32,000 nt of DNA from Microcystis aeruginosa NIES-2549 (lineage in GTDB: Bacteria; Cyanobacteriota; Cyanobacteriia; Cyanobacteriales; Microcystaceae). Location: contig NZ_CP011304.1 in NCBI RefSeq assembly GCF_000981785.2, forward strand, positions 4,050,001-4,082,000, in the 5' to 3' direction. Numbering within the stretch: position 1 is the stretch's first letter; each line of letters opens with the position of its first letter. Position numbers and translations under genes: made by a program. Below are positions 22,841-32,000 of this stretch, in pieces. The notes beneath the pieces were generated by a model that ran no database searches, was not told where the DNA came from, and was given only the letters and a program-made list of their open reading frames with translations.

Positions 22841-25699
22841 ATGTCCAACGCTAAAAGTTACAAAGATACCGTTAATTTGCCTCAAACTGACTTTGATATG
22901 CGAGCAAATGCCAGTAAACGTGAGCCAGAAATCCAGAAATTCTGGCAAGATGAGCAAATATACGAGAAATTAGCGCAAAATAACCCCAAAGAATTATTTA
23001 TTCTCCACGATGGCCCCCCCTACGCTAACGGGTCCCTGCATATCGGTCATGCTTTAAATAAAATTCTCAAAGACATTATCAATAAATATAAACTGCTGCA
23101 AGGCTACAAAGTGCGCTATGTGCCTGGTTGGGATTGTCACGGGTTGCCGATCGAACTGAAGGTTTTACAAAGTCTCAAAAGCTCGGAAAAAGAGGGTCTA
23201 ACCCCTTTGAAATTACGTCAGAAAGCCCACGATTTTGCCCTTCAAACGCAAAAAGAACAGTGTGAAGGTTTCAAAAGGTATGGAGTCTGGGGAGACTGGG
23301 AAAATCCCTATTTAACCCTACAACCTGAATACGAGGCCGCTCAAATTGCCGTATTCGGAAAAATGGCCCTGAAAGGTTATATTTATCGGGGACTAAAACC
23401 AGTTCACTGGAGTCCCAGTTCTCAAACCGCTTTAGCTGAGGCAGAATTAGAATATCCCGAAGGTCACACTTCCAGGAGTGTCTATGTTGCTTTTCCGATT
23501 ACGTCAGTTTCAACCCCGGTTTTAACGCCATTTTTGCCTAATTTATCCGTGGCTATCTGGACGACTACCCCCTGGACTTTACCCGGGAATTTGGCCGTCG
23601 CATTGAACCCAGAATTAAACTATTCAGTGGTAGAAACTAGCGAGTCTAATTATCTAATCGTAGCGACGGATTTAGTCGAAAAATTGGCCGATACTTTTAA
23701 CAGGACTTTGACGATTAAAGCAACGGTTAAAGGTCTGGAATTAGAACATACTAAATATCGTCATCCTTTGTTTGACAGAGAAAGTGCGATTCTCATTGGT
23801 GGGGATTATGTCACCACCGATTCCGGCACCGGATTAGTTCATACTGCTCCTGGTCATGGTCAGGAGGATTATATCGTCGGCCAACGTTACGGTTTACCGA
23901 TACTTTCTCCCGTGGATGATAAGGGAAATTTCACCGCAGAAGCAGGACAATTTGAGGGTTTAAATGTCTTGAAAGATGCTAATGAAGCAATTATTTTAGC
24001 ACTGACAGAAAAGGGTGCCTTACTCAAAGAAGAAGCATATCAGCATAAATATCCCTACGATTGGAGAACCAAAAAACCGACAATTTTCCGCGCAACAGAA
24101 CAATGGTTTGCTTCCGTGGAAGGATTCCGGGAATTAGCTTTAGATGCAATTGATTCGGTGCGTTGGATTCCCGCAACAGGTAAGAATCGCATCACTTCTA
24201 TGGTCAGTGAAAGAAGCGATTGGTGTATCTCTCGTCAGCGCAGTTGGGGGGTTCCTATTCCTGTTTTTTATGACGAAGAAACGAATGAACCTCTGTTAAC
24301 CGAGGAGACGATTAATCACGTTCAAGCTATCTTCGCGGTCAAGGGTTCTAATGCTTGGTGGGAGTTATCCGTAGAGGAATTATTGCCTCCCAGTTATCGC
24401 GATAATGGTCGCAGTTATCGCAAGGGAATGGATACTATGGATGTGTGGTTTGATTCTGGTTCTAGTTGGAATGCGGTGGCTAATGCTCGACCAGAATTAA
24501 GTTATCCTGCGGATATGTATCTAGAAGGATCGGATCAGCATCGGGGATGGTTTCAATCGAGTTTATTAACCAGTGTGGCTGCTAATGGTATTGCTCCCTA
24601 TAAAACGGTGTTAACTCACGGTTTTGTTTTGGATGAACAGGGACGAAAAATGAGTAAATCTCTGGGTAATGTCATCGATCCCAATGTGATCATTAATGGT
24701 GGTAAAGACCAGAAAAAAGAACCCGCTTATGGGGTGGATGTGATTCGGTTATGGGTGTCATCGGTGGACTATACCAATGATGTGAATATCGGTCAAAATA
24801 TTCTTAAACAGTTGGTAGATATCCGTAATAAAATCCGTAATACTGCCAGGTTTTTACTGGGGAGTTTAAATGATTTTGATCCCGTTAAAGATGCAGTAGC
24901 TTATGAAGATCTACCGGAGATCGATCGCTATATGTTACATCGTATCTCGGAAGTGTTTACGGAAGTAACGGCAGCTTTTGAAAGTTTCCAATTTTTCCGC
25001 TTTTTTCAGACGGTACAGAATTTTTGTGTTGTCGATTTATCTAACTTTTATATCGACATCGCTAAGGATCGTTTATACATTTCTGATCCTAATTCTTTCC
25101 GTCGTCGCAGTTGTCAAACAGTCTATGCTATTGCTTTAGAAAATCTCGCTAAAGCGATCGCTCCTGTCCTCTCTCATCTAGCGGAAGATATCTGGCAATT
25201 TCTCCCCTACAAAACTCCTTATTTATCGGTATTTGAGTCAGGATGGCTAAACATCGATCCTGCTTGGAATAATCGCGAATTGGCCGATAAATGGGCCAAA
25301 TTCCGGCAGCTACGCACCGAAGTTAATAAGGTGATGGAAACTGCCAGAAATGATAAGGCGATCGGTGCTTCTTTAGAGGCAAAAGTTTTACTTTATGTTC
25401 CCGATGAAACCTTACAACAGGAGTTAGAATTATTCAACAATTGTGATAGTTTAACGGGGAATAAAGTCGATGAATTGCGTTATCTATTTCTCTCTTCTCA
25501 AGTGGAATTAGTTAGTGATATTAGCGCAATTCAAACCGCAGAATATAAGGGAGAATCGGACTTGGTTTCGGTGGGAATTGTCAAAGCAGACGGCGAAAAA
25601 TGCGATCGCTGTTGGAATTATTCCACTCAAGTGGGAAAATTTGCCGATGATCCCACTATTTGCGAGCGCTGTAATGCCGCTTTAAAAGGAGAGTTCTAA
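22841..25699 (+). CDS. ileS: Isoleucine--tRNA ligase
   Basis: 952 aa. Class I motifs PPYANGSLHIGH and KMSKS, a CP1 editing domain and a C-terminal zinc knuckle CDRCW...CERC. Confidence 0.95.
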   Translation: MSNAKSYKDTVNLPQTDFDMRANASKREPEIQKFWQDEQIYEKLAQNNPKELFILHDGPPYANGSLHIGHALNKILKDIINKYKLLQGYKVRYVPGWDCHGLPIELKVLQSLKSSEKEGLTPLKLRQKAHDFALQTQKEQCEGFKRYGVWGDWENPYLTLQPEYEAAQIAVFGKMALKGYIYRGLKPVHWSPSSQTALAEAELEYPEGHTSRSVYVAFPITSVSTPVLTPFLPNLSVAIWTTTPWTLPGNLAVALNPELNYSVVETSESNYLIVATDLVEKLADTFNRTLTIKATVKGLELEHTKYRHPLFDRESAILIGGDYVTTDSGTGLVHTAPGHGQEDYIVGQRYGLPILSPVDDKGNFTAEAGQFEGLNVLKDANEAIILALTEKGALLKEEAYQHKYPYDWRTKKPTIFRATEQWFASVEGFRELALDAIDSVRWIPATGKNRITSMVSERSDWCISRQRSWGVPIPVFYDEETNEPLLTEETINHVQAIFAVKGSNAWWELSVEELLPPSYRDNGRSYRKGMDTMDVWFDSGSSWNAVANARPELSYPADMYLEGSDQHRGWFQSSLLTSVAANGIAPYKTVLTHGFVLDEQGRKMSKSLGNVIDPNVIINGGKDQKKEPAYGVDVIRLWVSSVDYTNDVNIGQNILKQLVDIRNKIRNTARFLLGSLNDFDPVKDAVAYEDLPEIDRYMLHRISEVFTEVTAAFESFQFFRFFQTVQNFCVVDLSNFYIDIAKDRLYISDPNSFRRRSCQTVYAIALENLAKAIAPVLSHLAEDIWQFLPYKTPYLSVFESGWLNIDPAWNNRELADKWAKFRQLRTEVNKVMETARNDKAIGASLEAKVLLYVPDETLQQELELFNNCDSLTGNKVDELRYLFLSSQVELVSDISAIQTAEYKGESDLVSVGIVKADGEKCDRCWNYSTQVGKFADDPTICERCNAALKGEF

Positions 25700-25709
25700 G
25701 CTAAATTAA

Positions 25710-25741
25710 AAGGGTGCTTTATTGTCGAATAAAGTACCCTT
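25710..25741 (+). terminator. Hairpin directly after the ileS stop
   Basis: A 13-bp stem aagggtgctttat / ataaagtaccctt (one G-U pair) with loop tgtcga. The downstream T-run is weak. Confidence 0.4.
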
Positions 25742-25790: not shown

Positions 25791-26822
25791 ATGGATGTTA
25801 GCGATCTTAAGAAAACTGCCTTGATATATTGGCCAGTTGAATTAGCAGAAAAAGAAAAACTATCTAGTATAATTCCCTTACTAATACGAACTCAAGAAAG
25901 TTTTATCAGTATATTAAGAATAGCATCTAAAGATCCATTCTCATGGATAACAGCCTTAGATTTATGTGATGAACTTTATCCTAATCTATTTTTAAAACAT
26001 CTCTGTGTTCTATCTGATATTGGTGGAGAAAATTTAAAACGATTCTCTTCAGAACTTTCTAGGGATTTTTATTCTAAAGATTTTGAGTTTATATTTCGAG
26101 ACAAAATTTATCAATACCAGTTTGTTTCTTTGAAAAATAGAGCTACATGGAATAATAAAAATTTGGGATTAGACGGGGAGGGGATATTAAAAACTTGTTC
26201 TCTTAGCCAAGAAATCCGAGATGTTATTATGCTAATAATGTTCGGTGGTTTGGCAACCTCTATAAATGTTCCTGATGAAATAGAAGAAAAATGTATTATT
26301 GGTGCTATGATAGGTAACATTAGACTTCTGGAAGAATATATTAAGCATCGTTACATCTGGGTTAGTAAAATTACTGGGGGAGCAAAATCGAATAAAATGG
26401 GTCAGCTTGCTCAAGAATACATTAGAGAAAAATTGAAAGTATATTTACCTGAGTGGGATTTTTCTAGAAAATCTATACCAGGAATAAGTCAAAATGAGGG
26501 TAGAACACTAACCAAATTTGATATAGTGGGAATACCACCTCATGATCGACCACCTTACTGGGGTATTGAAGTATCATTTCAATTTACTACTAACAGTGTT
26601 GTAGAAAGGAAAGGAAAATTGGCTAGAGATAGACGAGAAATTTTAAACAGACAGCACCATAAGGTTGCTTATGTAGTTGATGGAGCGGGAAATTTTGACA
26701 GAAGTTCTTTTATACAAGACTTAATTGATTTTAGTGACTGTGTTGTTAACTTTAGTGAAAATGATCTTAAGCGTTTAGCTAAAACTATGGAGGATTCAAT
26801 TAAAAATGAGCCACAAAAGTGA
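25791..26822 (+). CDS. Putative restriction endonuclease-like protein (unassigned; motif layout recalls the DpnII/MboI family)
   Basis: AT-rich ORF. ATG 25791 is preferred, since the track TTG at 25722 lies inside the ileS hairpin. The C-terminal third reads GGAKSNKMGQLAQEYI ... KFDIVG ... IEVSFQFTTNSVVERK. Its 3' end overlaps the methyltransferase start by 17 nt. Confidence 0.45.
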   Translation: MDVSDLKKTALIYWPVELAEKEKLSSIIPLLIRTQESFISILRIASKDPFSWITALDLCDELYPNLFLKHLCVLSDIGGENLKRFSSELSRDFYSKDFEFIFRDKIYQYQFVSLKNRATWNNKNLGLDGEGILKTCSLSQEIRDVIMLIMFGGLATSINVPDEIEEKCIIGAMIGNIRLLEEYIKHRYIWVSKITGGAKSNKMGQLAQEYIREKLKVYLPEWDFSRKSIPGISQNEGRTLTKFDIVGIPPHDRPPYWGIEVSFQFTTNSVVERKGKLARDRREILNRQHHKVAYVVDGAGNFDRSSFIQDLIDFSDCVVNFSENDLKRLAKTMEDSIKNEPQK

Positions 26823-28572
26823 AAATTGTCTGCCACTAAAAATTATTGAAATACAGCCTTCTGCGTTAGAAAATAATTATCAAACTATAGGCAAAAACTC
26901 TAATGTCTATTTTCTTCATCTTCCGACTATTAAACTATGTAAAATCAAAGAAATATCTAATCTTAAAGATTACTTAATTAGTTTTGCAAATGAATTAGAT
27001 GATAAAAGTGTATTGTGTATATTGTCCAATGCAGAAATTGCCTGTCAAGTCATATCGTTTTTAGAAAAATCTACATATTTCAAGCTATGGGTTGCTATCA
27101 AAAGAAGTCAAGCATTAATGGATGAGAGCTATATGTTAGACAACCATGTATCTTTGACGATGTTTACTAAATACCGTTCACCTTTAAAGCATAATAAAAC
27201 TTTAATTCAGTATTCTTATTGTCCCTCCTGTAATAAAACGACAAAAGATTATGGAGGTAAAAAACATTTATATAGTCCATTGGGAACATTAATGTCAGAT
27301 GTGTGGAGGGACATAAGTTATTCTCATCAAAAAATACCTCAAGATATTCTTGAAAGAATAAAGGATCTTTTTGGGTTAGAACCATATCAATTTGTGTACT
27401 ATATAGATCTACAAAATTATTTTGCCACCATCGACAATAATCAAAAAATAAAACCTCTAGAAAATACAACTAATAATGTCATATACAAACAACCAAGTAA
27501 TTTGATTAAAAGCAATCTACTAATTAATGATGATTGCTTAAATTATCTACGATTATTACCCAATAATTCAATAGATTTTGTTTTTGCCGATCCTCCTTAC
27601 AATATCCAAAAAAAATATGATATATGGAATGATTGTCAGGATAATAATCAATACATAAAGTGGTGTATTGAATGGGTCAATGAACTGGCTAGAGTATTAA
27701 AGAATGGAAAAACTCTAGCACTCCTCAATATTCCTATATACTTGGCTAAATACTATGAATTTAGTCAAGGAGTTTTAGAATTTCAAAATTGGATAGTTTG
27801 GGAAAGTCTTAGTCTTCCTGTAAGACAAATAATGCCTGCACATTATGGTATTTTGTGCCTAGGCAAAGGTGAACCAGAAATTAAAAAAATTAGTAATGAA
27901 AGTATTTATGATTATAATTTTTCTTTAAAAGAATGGTATTGTATTAGAGAGCAATGTATCAAAAAAAGAAATAAAGATAAAACAGTAGATAGAGAACCGT
28001 TAACTAATATATGGTGGGACATTCATAGACTAAAGCATAATTCAAAACGTGTAGATCACCCATGTCAACTACCTCCAACACTAATGAAACGTATTCTCAC
28101 TATATTTACCGAGGAAAATGATTTAGTATTAGACCCCTTTAATGGCTCTGGTACAACTACTCTTGTTGCCTCTATCATGAACAGACGATACATTGGCATT
28201 GAAATTTCTGAGCAGTATCATTCTTTAGCTGAACAAAGACATACAGAGTTAGAAAATGGTGTTGATCCATTTGCTAAAAGAGATATTATTCCTAAGGCTA
28301 AAAATAGTAGAGTTAATCGTATTAAAAAACAAAAATATGATGTTTCTAAAAAAACTTTACAGCTAGAAGTGAGAGATATAGCGCTAAAAATAGGACGAAA
28401 ACCAACCAGAGAAGATATAGAAAAGTACAGCCAATATCCTTTCAGATACTTTGACGAATATTTTGCTGATTGGGGAGAAGTTTGTAGCGCTGTCGGTGAT
28501 AAGGGTATGCAAGAAAACAAGGACATAGATAACTACCCAAACTTTAAGCAGCTTGAGCTACCATTTGAGTGA
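26806..28572 (+). CDS. DNA methyltransferase, beta-class N6A/N4C family (motif IV before motif I), with a degenerate N-terminal duplicate half and a C-terminal helical tail
   Basis: 588 aa. Motif IV FADPPYN (DPPY at nt 27589-27600), HPCQLP (28057-28074) and motif I LDPFNGSGTT (28132-28158). The N-terminal ~230 aa and C-terminal ~90 aa are additional to a normal enzyme of about 270 aa. Confidence 0.85.
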   Translation: MSHKSENCLPLKIIEIQPSALENNYQTIGKNSNVYFLHLPTIKLCKIKEISNLKDYLISFANELDDKSVLCILSNAEIACQVISFLEKSTYFKLWVAIKRSQALMDESYMLDNHVSLTMFTKYRSPLKHNKTLIQYSYCPSCNKTTKDYGGKKHLYSPLGTLMSDVWRDISYSHQKIPQDILERIKDLFGLEPYQFVYYIDLQNYFATIDNNQKIKPLENTTNNVIYKQPSNLIKSNLLINDDCLNYLRLLPNNSIDFVFADPPYNIQKKYDIWNDCQDNNQYIKWCIEWVNELARVLKNGKTLALLNIPIYLAKYYEFSQGVLEFQNWIVWESLSLPVRQIMPAHYGILCLGKGEPEIKKISNESIYDYNFSLKEWYCIREQCIKKRNKDKTVDREPLTNIWWDIHRLKHNSKRVDHPCQLPPTLMKRILTIFTEENDLVLDPFNGSGTTTLVASIMNRRYIGIEISEQYHSLAEQRHTELENGVDPFAKRDIIPKAKNSRVNRIKKQKYDVSKKTLQLEVRDIALKIGRKPTREDIEKYSQYPFRYFDEYFADWGEVCSAVGDKGMQENKDIDNYPNFKQLELPFE

Positions 28573-28714
28573 TTCTTAATAATGTTGACTTATTTCTCAC
28601 AGGATCGCTTAGTCAAAATTAAACCCCCTAACCGGCGAAAATTAACTGCAAGCGATCGAAAAACTGGGAAAATATTCAATTGATTCAATGTCATCTTTTT
28701 TAACTATCCTGCCC

Positions 28715-29104
28715 ATGAATAATCAGGTCATCCGTACTGATAAAGCTCCGGCCCCTGTGGGTCCCTATAATCAAGCGATCGCCGCTCCTGGTCCTTTTCT
28801 CTTTGTTGCGGGACAAATTCCCCTAGATCCCGTCACGGGTGAAATCGTCTCCGGGGAAATTAGCGCCCAAACCGAACAAGTTATGGCCAATCTAGAGGGC
28901 ATTTTAACCGCTGCTGGGGCTAATTGGTCAAATGTGGTGAAAACTACCGTCTTTCTCTCGGATTTAGCCAATTTCGGGGCGATGAATCAAGTTTATGCCC
29001 GTTATTTCCCCCCGGAAACTGCCCCGGCCCGGGCCTGTGTGGAGGTGGCCCGTCTTCCCAAAGATGTGCTAGTGGAAATAGAATGTATTGCCGCTTTAGC
29101 CTAA
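28715..29104 (+). CDS. ridA: RidA (YjgF/TdcF) family reactive-intermediate imine deaminase
   Basis: [22 protein letters not shown] ... [22 protein letters not shown] 28715 gives the usual length of about 129 aa, and an in-frame ATG at 28688 is the alternative. Confidence 0.88.
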
Positions 29105-31204: not shown

Positions 31205-32000
31205 TTAAGTGATATTTTCCCAGATGGTGATGCTGCCGTCGGCCGCGGCCGCCGCTAGGTGGCAATAATCGGGGCTGAGAACTAAACTGGAGATCGGCGA
31301 TGATCGCCCATCGGCAGCGGTGAGAGTTGCGATCGCCTGTTGAGAATTGGCTAACCAGATTTTAATCTCTCCGTCGGTTCCCCCGGTAAATAACCATTGA
31401 CCCTCCTCTGCGAATACCAAGCTTGTCACCTGACCATTATGGGCATTGATCACCCGAATTGGCGCAAAATGACCGCTTTTCTCCGGGTCGTATTGCCAGA
31501 TTTTCACCGTCCCATCCACACAACCGGCGGCAATAATCTGACCATCGGCAGCGATCGCAAGACTCTCTACCGAAGAAACGTTACCGGATAGGACGGCGAT
31601 TTTTGCTCCCGATCCCAATTGCCAGAGGGAGACAGTGCCATCACCTCCAGCTGCGGCGATAAAATCTTGATTAGGAGCCACCGCTAGGGCATAAATTGCC
31701 CCCAGACTGTCATAGGAGCTAAATTCTTCGGTTTCCTGCTCTAAATTCCACTGTTTTAGGGTTTGATCGTAACTACCACTAACCAAAAAATGCCACCGAG
31801 GGGCAAAATCTAGGCCGTGAATCGAACCGAGATGACCGAGGAAAATTTGATTTAATTCCAGACTACTGGCATCGCTGGCTAAAGTCCATAATTTAACGGT
31901 TTGATCGAATCCTCCCGTCGCTAGATGATAATCGCCGTTTCCGGTGACTGCTAGGGCTAAAATGCCCTGATCATGAGCTTCCACCGTATTAATCAGGGTT
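31205..32000 (-). CDS. WD40-repeat protein, C-terminal part (5' end off-window)
   Basis: Repeated units of H..V..LA....G..LA(T/S)GG.D.T(V/I)K(L/I)W type. The frame stays open upstream of the GTG at 31984 to the window edge. Confidence 0.8.
   Translation of the reverse strand, partial: TLINTVEAHDQGILALAVTGNGDYHLATGGFDQTVKLWTLASDASSLELNQIFLGHLGSIHGLDFAPRWHFLVSGSYDQTLKQWNLEQETEEFSSYDSLGAIYALAVAPNQDFIAAAGGDGTVSLWQLGSGAKIAVLSGNVSSVESLAIAADGQIIAAGCVDGTVKIWQYDPEKSGHFAPIRVINAHNGQVTSLVFAEEGQWLFTGGTDGEIKIWLANSQQAIATLTAADGRSSPISSLVLSPDYCHLAAAAADGSITIWENIT

Follow-up and report, generated by a model that had tools for sequence, protein, structure and literature searches.

The motif order of β-class amino-methyltransferases has been argued in a review to force dimerisation, in that a single DNA-binding surface is composed of one protomer's catalytic face and its partner's DNA-binding face (PMC7544214). 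Division of labour between protomers is seen in EcoP15I and CcrM; in the partner proteins MTA9 and METTL14 motif IV is eroded, and the inactive partner is needed for the substrate-binding unit (PMC7544214). Here we describe a 588-residue DNA methyltransferase (MTase) encoded in a 32,000-nucleotide stretch of Microcystis aeruginosa NIES-2549 (NZ_CP011304.1, positions 4,050,001 to 4,082,000; the whole stretch is referred to as the window). The enzyme is part of a BanI-type restriction–modification (R-M) operon and joins a degenerate β-class MTase fold to a live one. It is likely a hard-wired single-chain pseudo-heterodimer that separates DNA reading from catalysis. To our knowledge, the genetically fixed dead partners of β-class MTases are eukaryotic only, namely those of METTL3–METTL14 and MTA1–MTA9.

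Both of these complexes resemble the window MTase in having two paralogous β-class folds, one active (DPPW/DPPY) and one eroded at motif IV. They are eukaryotic, consist of two polypeptides and act on RNA or on ApT in DNA, and the fold of their dead partner is complete. In contrast, the window type is a prokaryotic R-M enzyme found as fused or overlapping genes, and its dead module is truncated after β1 and lacks the half that binds S-adenosylmethionine (SAM). An earlier note, made from the sequence alone, had likened the protein to METTL3/METTL14. The likeness holds for the paralogous active and eroded modules; the fusion, the overlapping genes and a predicted model with a template-modelling score (pTM) of 0.81 would fit their physical and functional association. 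The bacterial enzymes M.EcoP15I Mod2, CcrM and M.BceJIV have the same fold and motif order, one protomer catalysing while the other contacts DNA (PMC7544214, PMC11380664). The protomers of homodimeric β-class MTases are identical and both potentially active, whereas the asymmetry of the window MTase is genetically fixed. RsmC and RlmG also carry two homologous MTase domains in one chain, one for substrate binding and one for catalysis (PMC1934991). They belong to a different MTase class, modify guanine-N2 of rRNA outside any R-M system and have two complete Rossmann folds; RlmG (4dcm) was a weak Foldseek match of the full-length model described below. METTL3–METTL14, MTA1–MTA9 and the tandem-domain RsmC are the conceptual precedents for the window protein.

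Among plasmid records, the nearest single-domain relatives of both halves are the M.BamHI-type MTases of about 415 residues (E 1e-36 to 1e-42 for the C-terminal half, 1e-11 to 1e-13 for the N-terminal half), which share a CxxC...KDYGG...SD[VI]W.DI signature with the N-terminal half. There is biochemical evidence that M.BamHI is a dimer (PMC7544214), as which it exists in solution, and its product is GGAT(N4m)CC (PMC3646050). The BamHI and BanI sites share a GG..CC frame. M.BamHI-type enzymes differ in having a single active domain (DPPF, FGGSGTT) preceded by a helix-turn-helix (HTH)-like N-terminal extension, with neither a dead paralog nor an HNH_repeat tail, and their partners are BamHI-type nucleases and a C-protein. 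The nuclease family PF24447 is common to the window and the prototype BanI and HgiCI systems, whose methylases are C5-cytosine enzymes, whereas the partner in the window is a β-class amino-MTase.

The two methyltransferase halves

The C-terminal half matches PF01555 (N6_N4_Mtase) over residues 256–476 with 162.8 bits against a cutoff of 26.7 (E 1.5e-47). Motif IV (DPPY) precedes motif I (FxGxG), the order that defines the β class. Its sequence matches in the Protein Data Bank (PDB) are M.BceJIV, MboIIA, the rotifer N4-cytosine MTase (N4CMT), CcrM, RsrI and PvuII. Foldseek with the full-length AlphaFold model returned CcrM (E 1.9e-16) as well as M.BceJIV, MboIIA, RsrI and PvuII.

That the N-terminal half is homologous to β-class MTases and shares their fold, as the earlier note had proposed, we regard as close to certain. 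Residues 80–170 match single-domain M.BamHI-type MTases from Klebsiella, Desulfocapsa and Geobacillus plasmids (BLASTP E 1.8e-13 to 4.5e-11), and the match lies inside the PF01555 region of these enzymes. A tblastn search of 7.3 Gb of plasmids with the N-terminal half alone returned five records only, all of them annotated MTases and the same as the best-scoring records of the active half. Its profile found only 237 representatives among 1.84 billion proteins, including active single-domain MTases with the same loop signature. The structure prediction points the same way. Residues 1–235 were modelled by AlphaFold from an alignment of 41 sequences, with a mean predicted local distance difference test score (pLDDT) of 80.5 and a pTM of 0.77. 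The first 28 Foldseek matches of this model are all bacterial or rotifer β-class MTases, the best being M.BceJIV (8urk, E 1.3e-6, TM 0.57); CcrM, MboIIA, M1.HpyAVI, a Type III Mod subunit, the rotifer N4-cytosine MTase and RsrI are also matched. Chains of the MTA1 complex and chain B of METTL3–METTL14 entries appear at lower ranks.

Pfam assigned no family to the first 235 residues of the window protein, which are thus below the gathering threshold of PF01555, and the N-half profile gave zero matches against PDB sequences at E up to 10. PF01555 matches weakly in the N-halves of 6 of 41 relatives (best E 0.0052). CarbpepA_inh also gave weak matches in 20 of the 41, which we judged spurious and attribute to the Cys/Gly-rich loop.

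The motif pairing between the halves that the earlier note had drawn was reproduced independently by HHalign with family profiles built from 120 full-length homologs. Residues 20–193 align with 244–438 over 165 collinear columns (score 35, E 2.4e-4, probability 44%). Scores are far lower with reversed profiles (around 15) and with column shuffles (16 ± 3.8, at most 26). Shuffling in 20-column blocks reaches 37 in 3 of 40 trials; a few motif blocks therefore carry much of the score. Direct BLASTP of one half against the other is not significant (E = 3), its best segment being the SDVWRDI/TNIWWDI pair. The HMMER cross-match of the window protein is in register and weak (i-E 0.46), falling below 0.01 in 15–16 of 200 relatives. 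The half-to-half signal is real but faint, and profiles, intermediate sequences and structure are needed to establish it. One such intermediate is the stand-alone dead subunit of locus L095 described below, which the C-terminal half of the window protein matches with E 4e-13 over 218 residues, giving a pairwise BLAST bridge between the halves. A chance resemblance, with the N-terminal region an unrelated domain, could appeal to the BLASTP value of 3 and to the missing Pfam match of the window N-half; profile, intermediate-sequence and structural evidence agree against it, and we consider it refuted already, with practically negligible probability. Both the self-alignment and the structural similarity are significant, and Pfam and PDB sequence searches of the fused N-half found no unrelated DNA-binding domain or HTH.

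The earlier note had seen the catalytic and SAM-binding motifs to be lost from the N-terminal half of this one protein. The loss is family-wide. In 200 homologs the position of the catalytic Asp is occupied by H, I, V or K and the glycine loop is lacking, and [DNS]PP[YFW] occurs in none of 196 N-halves. Both AlphaFold models show the elements of the N-half running parallel to those of the C-half (strand, helix, β4, helix, β5, helix, β6–β7 hairpin, loop, helix, β1). In both models the fold stops after the β1 equivalent, such that the αA–β2–αB segment for the adenosine of SAM is also missing. With motif IV, the glycine loop of motif I and αA–β2–αB all lost, the N-half would neither bind SAM nor catalyse, and we hold it to be catalytically inactive with high confidence. 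A second, cryptically active site using non-canonical motifs would make the protein a double MTase like the FokI-type fusions. The MTase fold is in keeping with this idea, as is the partial resemblance of L39 and P40 to the PP of motif IV; since the catalytic position lacks an acidic or polar side chain, and [DNS]PP[YFW], glycine loop and αA–β2–αB are all absent, it is very improbable.

The conserved loop and a proposed division of labour

The N-half has 24 invariant columns, nearly all of them between residues 129 and 169: H129, Y136, C139-P-x-C142, T-T-K-D-Y-G-G-K-K-H154 and G-T-L-x-S-D-x-W-x-D. This lysine-rich loop lies where the recognition elements of β-class enzymes sit. It is predicted to be flexible, since pLDDT falls below 50 at residues 148–157; recognition elements of the β class are typically disordered without DNA (PMC7544214). 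The N-half is under selection, as seen from the invariant columns and from the occurrence of both halves in a single open reading frame (ORF) in 79 of 80 loci fetched from the genomes of many phyla; all locus counts refer to these 80. We note that H129, C139, C142 and H154 (window 27190–27267; H-x9-C-x2-C-x11-H) are four invariant potential metal ligands within the dead half. A zinc site formed by them is possible but unsupported, and we do not claim one because neither histidine is conserved in the active BamHI-type relatives.

We propose that the enzyme is an asymmetric β-class dimer made permanent, in which a SAM-blind module with a basic loop is joined to a live module and a helical DNA-binding tail. 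The C-terminal module (residues 236–483) would carry out base flipping and methyl transfer. The dead module would take the place of the non-catalytic protomer and complete the DNA-binding surface, and its conserved loop probably contributes to sequence readout. By analogy with the homodimers, we infer that the two modules pack like a β-class dimer and that the dead module reads DNA. Taken by itself, a role of the N-half as recognition or partner module is reasonably likely. The full-length AlphaFold model (588 residues, pLDDT 79.8) has a pTM of 0.81, well above that expected for independently placed domains, which suggests a defined interface between the modules. No solved chain spans both halves in the Foldseek search with this model, where the matches align about 250–290 columns to one domain.

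The tail (residues 514–564) had been taken in the earlier note for a homing-endonuclease-associated repeat, and at family level this assignment, to an HNH_repeat module (PF18780), is borne out. In the window protein the score straddles the cutoff of 26 bits, with 22.3 for the whole protein and 25.7 or 26.1 for fragments (26.1 for the tail alone). Our assignment therefore relies on the family, in which 27 of 29 tails match PF18780 (best E 4.7e-11). The helices in the AlphaFold model comprise residues 515–529, 535–541, 546–552 and 556–562. A tail profile found no solved structure among PDB sequences, with only non-significant Cas8/Cas11 matches. The C-terminal domain of CcrM binds DNA non-specifically (PMC6787082) and would correspond in role to the HNH_repeat tail of the window MTase. 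On this comparison the tail probably provides additional, non-specific affinity for DNA.

The probable substrate is cytosine-N4 within GGYRCC. This assignment relies on GGCGCC containing no adenine and on the nearest characterised relative being an N4-cytosine enzyme. The DPPY motif and the automatic 'adenine-specific' annotations point away from N4-cytosine.

Several results weigh against the pseudo-heterodimer reading. The self-similarity of the halves is weak at sequence level, as the BLASTP and HMMER comparisons above make plain. The full-length protein could still homodimerise. Avoidance of GGYRCC, with 5 sites observed in the window and 19.5 expected, had to be rejected as evidence of specificity, since six-base palindromes are generally depleted: at least 20 of the 64 are absent from the whole window (1–32000), and observed/expected has a median of 0.53. 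Such palindrome avoidance is consistent with the very high R-M load that has been reported for Microcystis (PMC8262939). Lastly, pairwise identity is 43% in the N core and 61% in the C-half, which also fits a mainly structural role. The N-half might then serve solely as a scaffold for folding or stability of the active domain, a degenerate paralog with no part in DNA reading. RsmC offers a precedent, one of its tandem domains being needed if its neighbour is to fold (PMC1934991), and the tight packing suggested by the pTM of 0.81 would suit a scaffold as well as does the lower conservation of the N core. We nonetheless consider it unlikely, because conservation in the N-half peaks in the exposed, low-pLDDT, lysine-rich loop and not in the hydrophobic core, and the same loop is common to active M.BamHI-type enzymes and stand-alone dead subunits, in the β-class recognition region.

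The neighbourhood of the operon bears on a further alternative, in which the N-half is a regulatory DNA-binding module for operon transcription, in the style of the M.SsoII N-terminal region or of a C-protein, and binds an operator rather than the methylation site. The ORF list of the window contains no C-protein gene in the R-M operon, stand-alone dead subunits bear an N-terminal HTH (HTH_3 in L095) and M.BamHI-type relatives adjoin HTH regulators, all of which would suit such a role. The fused N-half itself has no HTH, matches no DNA-binding family and has an MTase fold, and a search near the operon start gave no conserved repeat of operator type. Regulation by the N-half is thus quite improbable, and we retain the recognition or partner role as the preferred reading.

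Relatives, split gene pairs and origin

The 588-residue protein falls in a 99% identical cluster (P0001) and has about 120 full-length homologs among the matches listed. A relative of the N-half is found in 205 of 185,579 species-level genomes. The taxa include Latescibacterota, Desulfobacterales, Planctomycetota, Bacteroidota, Chloroflexota, Acidobacteriota, Verrucomicrobiota and Armatimonadota, as well as the archaeon Methanoperedens. The N-half region is 98–99% identical in Microcystis sp. BLCC-F210 and in the metagenome-assembled genome M015S2. The tail is present at 76 of the 80 loci and a BanI-like nuclease at 74; 59 loci have a nuclease that is at least 80% complete immediately upstream, in the same orientation as the MTase. 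The sole locus without both halves in one ORF is from Armatimonadetes UBA5829 (L085:3989-5646), where they lie in different overlapping frames; this could reflect a frameshift, faulty assembly or a natural split. We also note two Latescibacterota loci. In one (L002:4598-6755) the MTase is intact and the upstream nuclease is cut down to a 133-residue RE_BanI_C remnant; in the other (L001:4664-6755) no nuclease was called. It appears that the nuclease has decayed at these loci to leave an orphan MTase.

Divergent fused families of about 570–600 residues have the same order of dead N-half, live C-half and tail. One (P0204, L097:44-2702) has a downstream gene with a weak match to the DpnII family, and another (P0231, L099:546-5399) is accompanied by a second MTase, an HTH protein and a 562-residue ORF without Pfam entry. 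The fused architecture is thus not tied to BanI-type nucleases.

On three independent contigs (L094:4001-5724, L095:132-1902 and L096:4001-5687) the two modules are separate genes, with the dead-module gene overlapping the start of the live MTase gene. The live partner, of 257–261 residues, is a complete β-class MTase (FADPPYN, DPFxGxGTT, C.R..C) and is 37–41% identical to the window C-half (E 1e-60 to 1e-68). The stand-alone dead subunits, of 309–336 residues, have an HTH-like N-terminus (HTH_3 in that of L095) and then a dead MTase fold, which breaks off shortly after the β1 equivalent. Their motif IV is eroded (IADLACE, IAMPPFN, ILNPSSN), the position of DPFxGSGTT reads 'LLLAPYDGE', and the CxxC...KDYGGKKH loop is intact. 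Found either as coupled genes or as one chain, the dead and live modules probably act together. This pairing in fused and unfused form indicates joint action at the level of gene arrangement and is the strongest new evidence for it. The earlier note's picture of an inactive scaffold joined to an active subunit gains from these split genes and from the pTM of 0.81; the pseudo-dimer mechanism would follow by analogy.

Outside the fused N-halves, the CxxC...KDYGG signature is confined to two groups, the active M.BamHI-type MTases and the stand-alone dead subunits; yhdJ, ApaLI-associated, CcrM-like and Lactiplantibacillus MTases lack the block. The whole CxxC...KDYGG...SD[VI]W.DI block, which lies between motif VIII and the motif X helix, is kept in the N-half, whereas the C-half retains only a C.R..C remnant. 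M.BamHI-type single-domain MTases at L087:1709-3954 and L088:1687-3915 have an N-terminal extension of about 110–130 residues and are oriented divergently from a pair of HTH regulator and nuclease genes. The stand-alone dead subunits likewise start with an HTH-like region, which hints at their ancestry. The Desulfocapsa MTase has as its neighbour a gene annotated 'Restriction endonuclease BamHI', which sits beside an HTH regulator.

The N-half is closest to the BamHI-type clade, at a mean distance of 0.904, compared with 0.963 from the C-half and 0.994 from the others. In neighbour-joining trees the C-half is sister to the BamHI-type clade in 78% of bootstraps. The N-half is not placed by the tree because its branch is too long; it falls at the outgroup in 69% of bootstraps, a long-branch attraction, and neighbour-joining was therefore set aside as a means of telling intragenic duplication from fusion, the sister relation of the C-half being the one usable result of the tree. 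Both halves appear to descend from BamHI-type stock, the N-half having kept the loop and lost the chemistry and the C-half the reverse. The earlier note had proposed an internal tandem duplication. The homology of the halves stands; the intragenic origin is not shown, and gene duplication with complementary degeneration (subfunctionalisation), followed by fusion, or else the splitting of a fused gene, fits at least as well. The separate-gene route fits because split forms exist and because the N-half keeps a BamHI-clade signature that is lost from the C-half.

The locus and its significance

The coordinates of the features are collected below. The ORF and the motifs listed in the earlier note are exact to the residue (C139 at 27220, SDVWRDI at 27295–27315), except that its tail peptide, G530–G564, ends at nucleotide 28497 and not at 28509. 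Within the basic connector, K, N, R and Y residues are invariant in the family alignment.

Table 1. Features of the methyltransferase gene and its neighbourhood in window coordinates
Feature	Position	Strand	Remarks
BanI-family Type II restriction endonuclease gene	25791..26822	+	343 residues; PF24447 RE_BanI, E 1.1e-107
Terminator-like hairpin, 14-bp stem, just 3′ of ileS	25710-25741	+	Consensus scan; upstream edge of the low-GC R-M island
Whole methyltransferase ORF, 588 residues	26806..28572	+	Dead MTase fold, linker, live MTase, basic connector, HNH_repeat tail
N-terminal degenerate β-class MTase fold, residues ~9-201	26830..27408	+	HHalign, BLASTP, AlphaFold/Foldseek
Invariant basic loop block of the dead half, residues 129-170	27190..27315	+	H129...C139-P-x-C142-x-K-T-T-K-D-Y-G-G-K-K-H154...G-T-L-x-S-D-V-W-R-D-I; proposed element resembling a target recognition domain
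Predicted-disordered linker, residues 202-235	27409..27510	+	Mean top-residue frequency 0.12, zero conserved columns; pLDDT ~40 at residues 212-232
Active β-class amino-MTase domain, residues 236-483	27511..28254	+	PF01555, E 1.5e-47
Motif IV DPPY, residues 262-265, catalytic	27589..27600	+	D, P, P, Y and the next N each 100% invariant in 200 homologs
Motif I DPFNGSGT, residues 443-450, SAM-binding glycine loop	28132..28155	+	D443, F445, T450 100%; G447 99%; G449 97%
Basic connector, residues 484-513 (G.DPF.K....P.AKNSRV.R.KKQKY.V.KK)	28255..28344	+	Mean top-residue frequency 0.69; 10 of 30 columns at least 95%
HNH_repeat-like helical module, residues 514-564	28345..28497	+	PF18780; four helices in model

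The operon consists of two overlapping forward-strand genes in a low-GC stretch of about 2.9 kb, flanked by ileS (22841–25699) and a RidA-like gene (28688–29104). The GC fraction is 0.29–0.32 across 26001–28000 and about 0.37–0.50 in the flanks. The PF24447 nuclease directly adjoins the MTase, as in BanI-family Type II systems, and its stop overlaps the MTase start by 17 nt. The mechanical nuclease ORF opens at TTG 25722. Judged by its sequence, the true start is probably ATG 25791, because the PF24447 match begins only at residue 24 of that ORF and homologous nucleases have 337–338 residues. We note that TTG 25722 falls inside the terminator-like hairpin. An imperfect 23-nt direct repeat (74% identity) at 25629–25651, in the 3′ end of ileS, and 28662–28684, before the RidA-like gene, brackets the island. 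The pair is probably due to chance and was rejected as an island-flanking repeat, with an insertion scar possible. An Rfam scan of the window gave no matches. An ORF at 31205–31984 on the reverse strand is WD40-repeat-like by its sequence pattern and is unconnected with the MTase. Microcystis is a genus known for very many R-M islands, and the operon is one more such horizontally acquired island.

We found no account of prokaryotic R-M enzymes in which an inactive or degenerate β-class module is joined to, or partners, a live one, in agreement with the earlier note on bacterial β-class enzymes; the search covered the open-access literature, with REBASE outside its scope. The family proteins stand in public databases under plain 'DNA methyltransferase' labels, and the present analysis flags some 230 residues in them that current annotation leaves blank. 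Whether prokaryotic R-M systems of bacteria and archaea have independently evolved obligate hetero-(pseudo)dimeric β-class MTases is, in our view, evenly balanced. Under this proposal a truncated, SAM-blind paralog would carry the reading loop and a live module the chemistry, the two occurring as coupled genes or as a fused chain and serving several nucleases. The family would then show that the fixed dead-partner solution exists in prokaryotic R-M, in both fused and split forms. It would also offer a simple, monomeric and easily expressed model for the division-of-labour hypothesis, in which each chain has a single SAM site, recognition can be separated from catalysis, and fusion and fission variants occur naturally. 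If the proposal is true, these enzymes would be natural proof that a dead partner can satisfy the β-class requirement for a dimer, and specificity could be reprogrammed by exchanging the dead recognition module.

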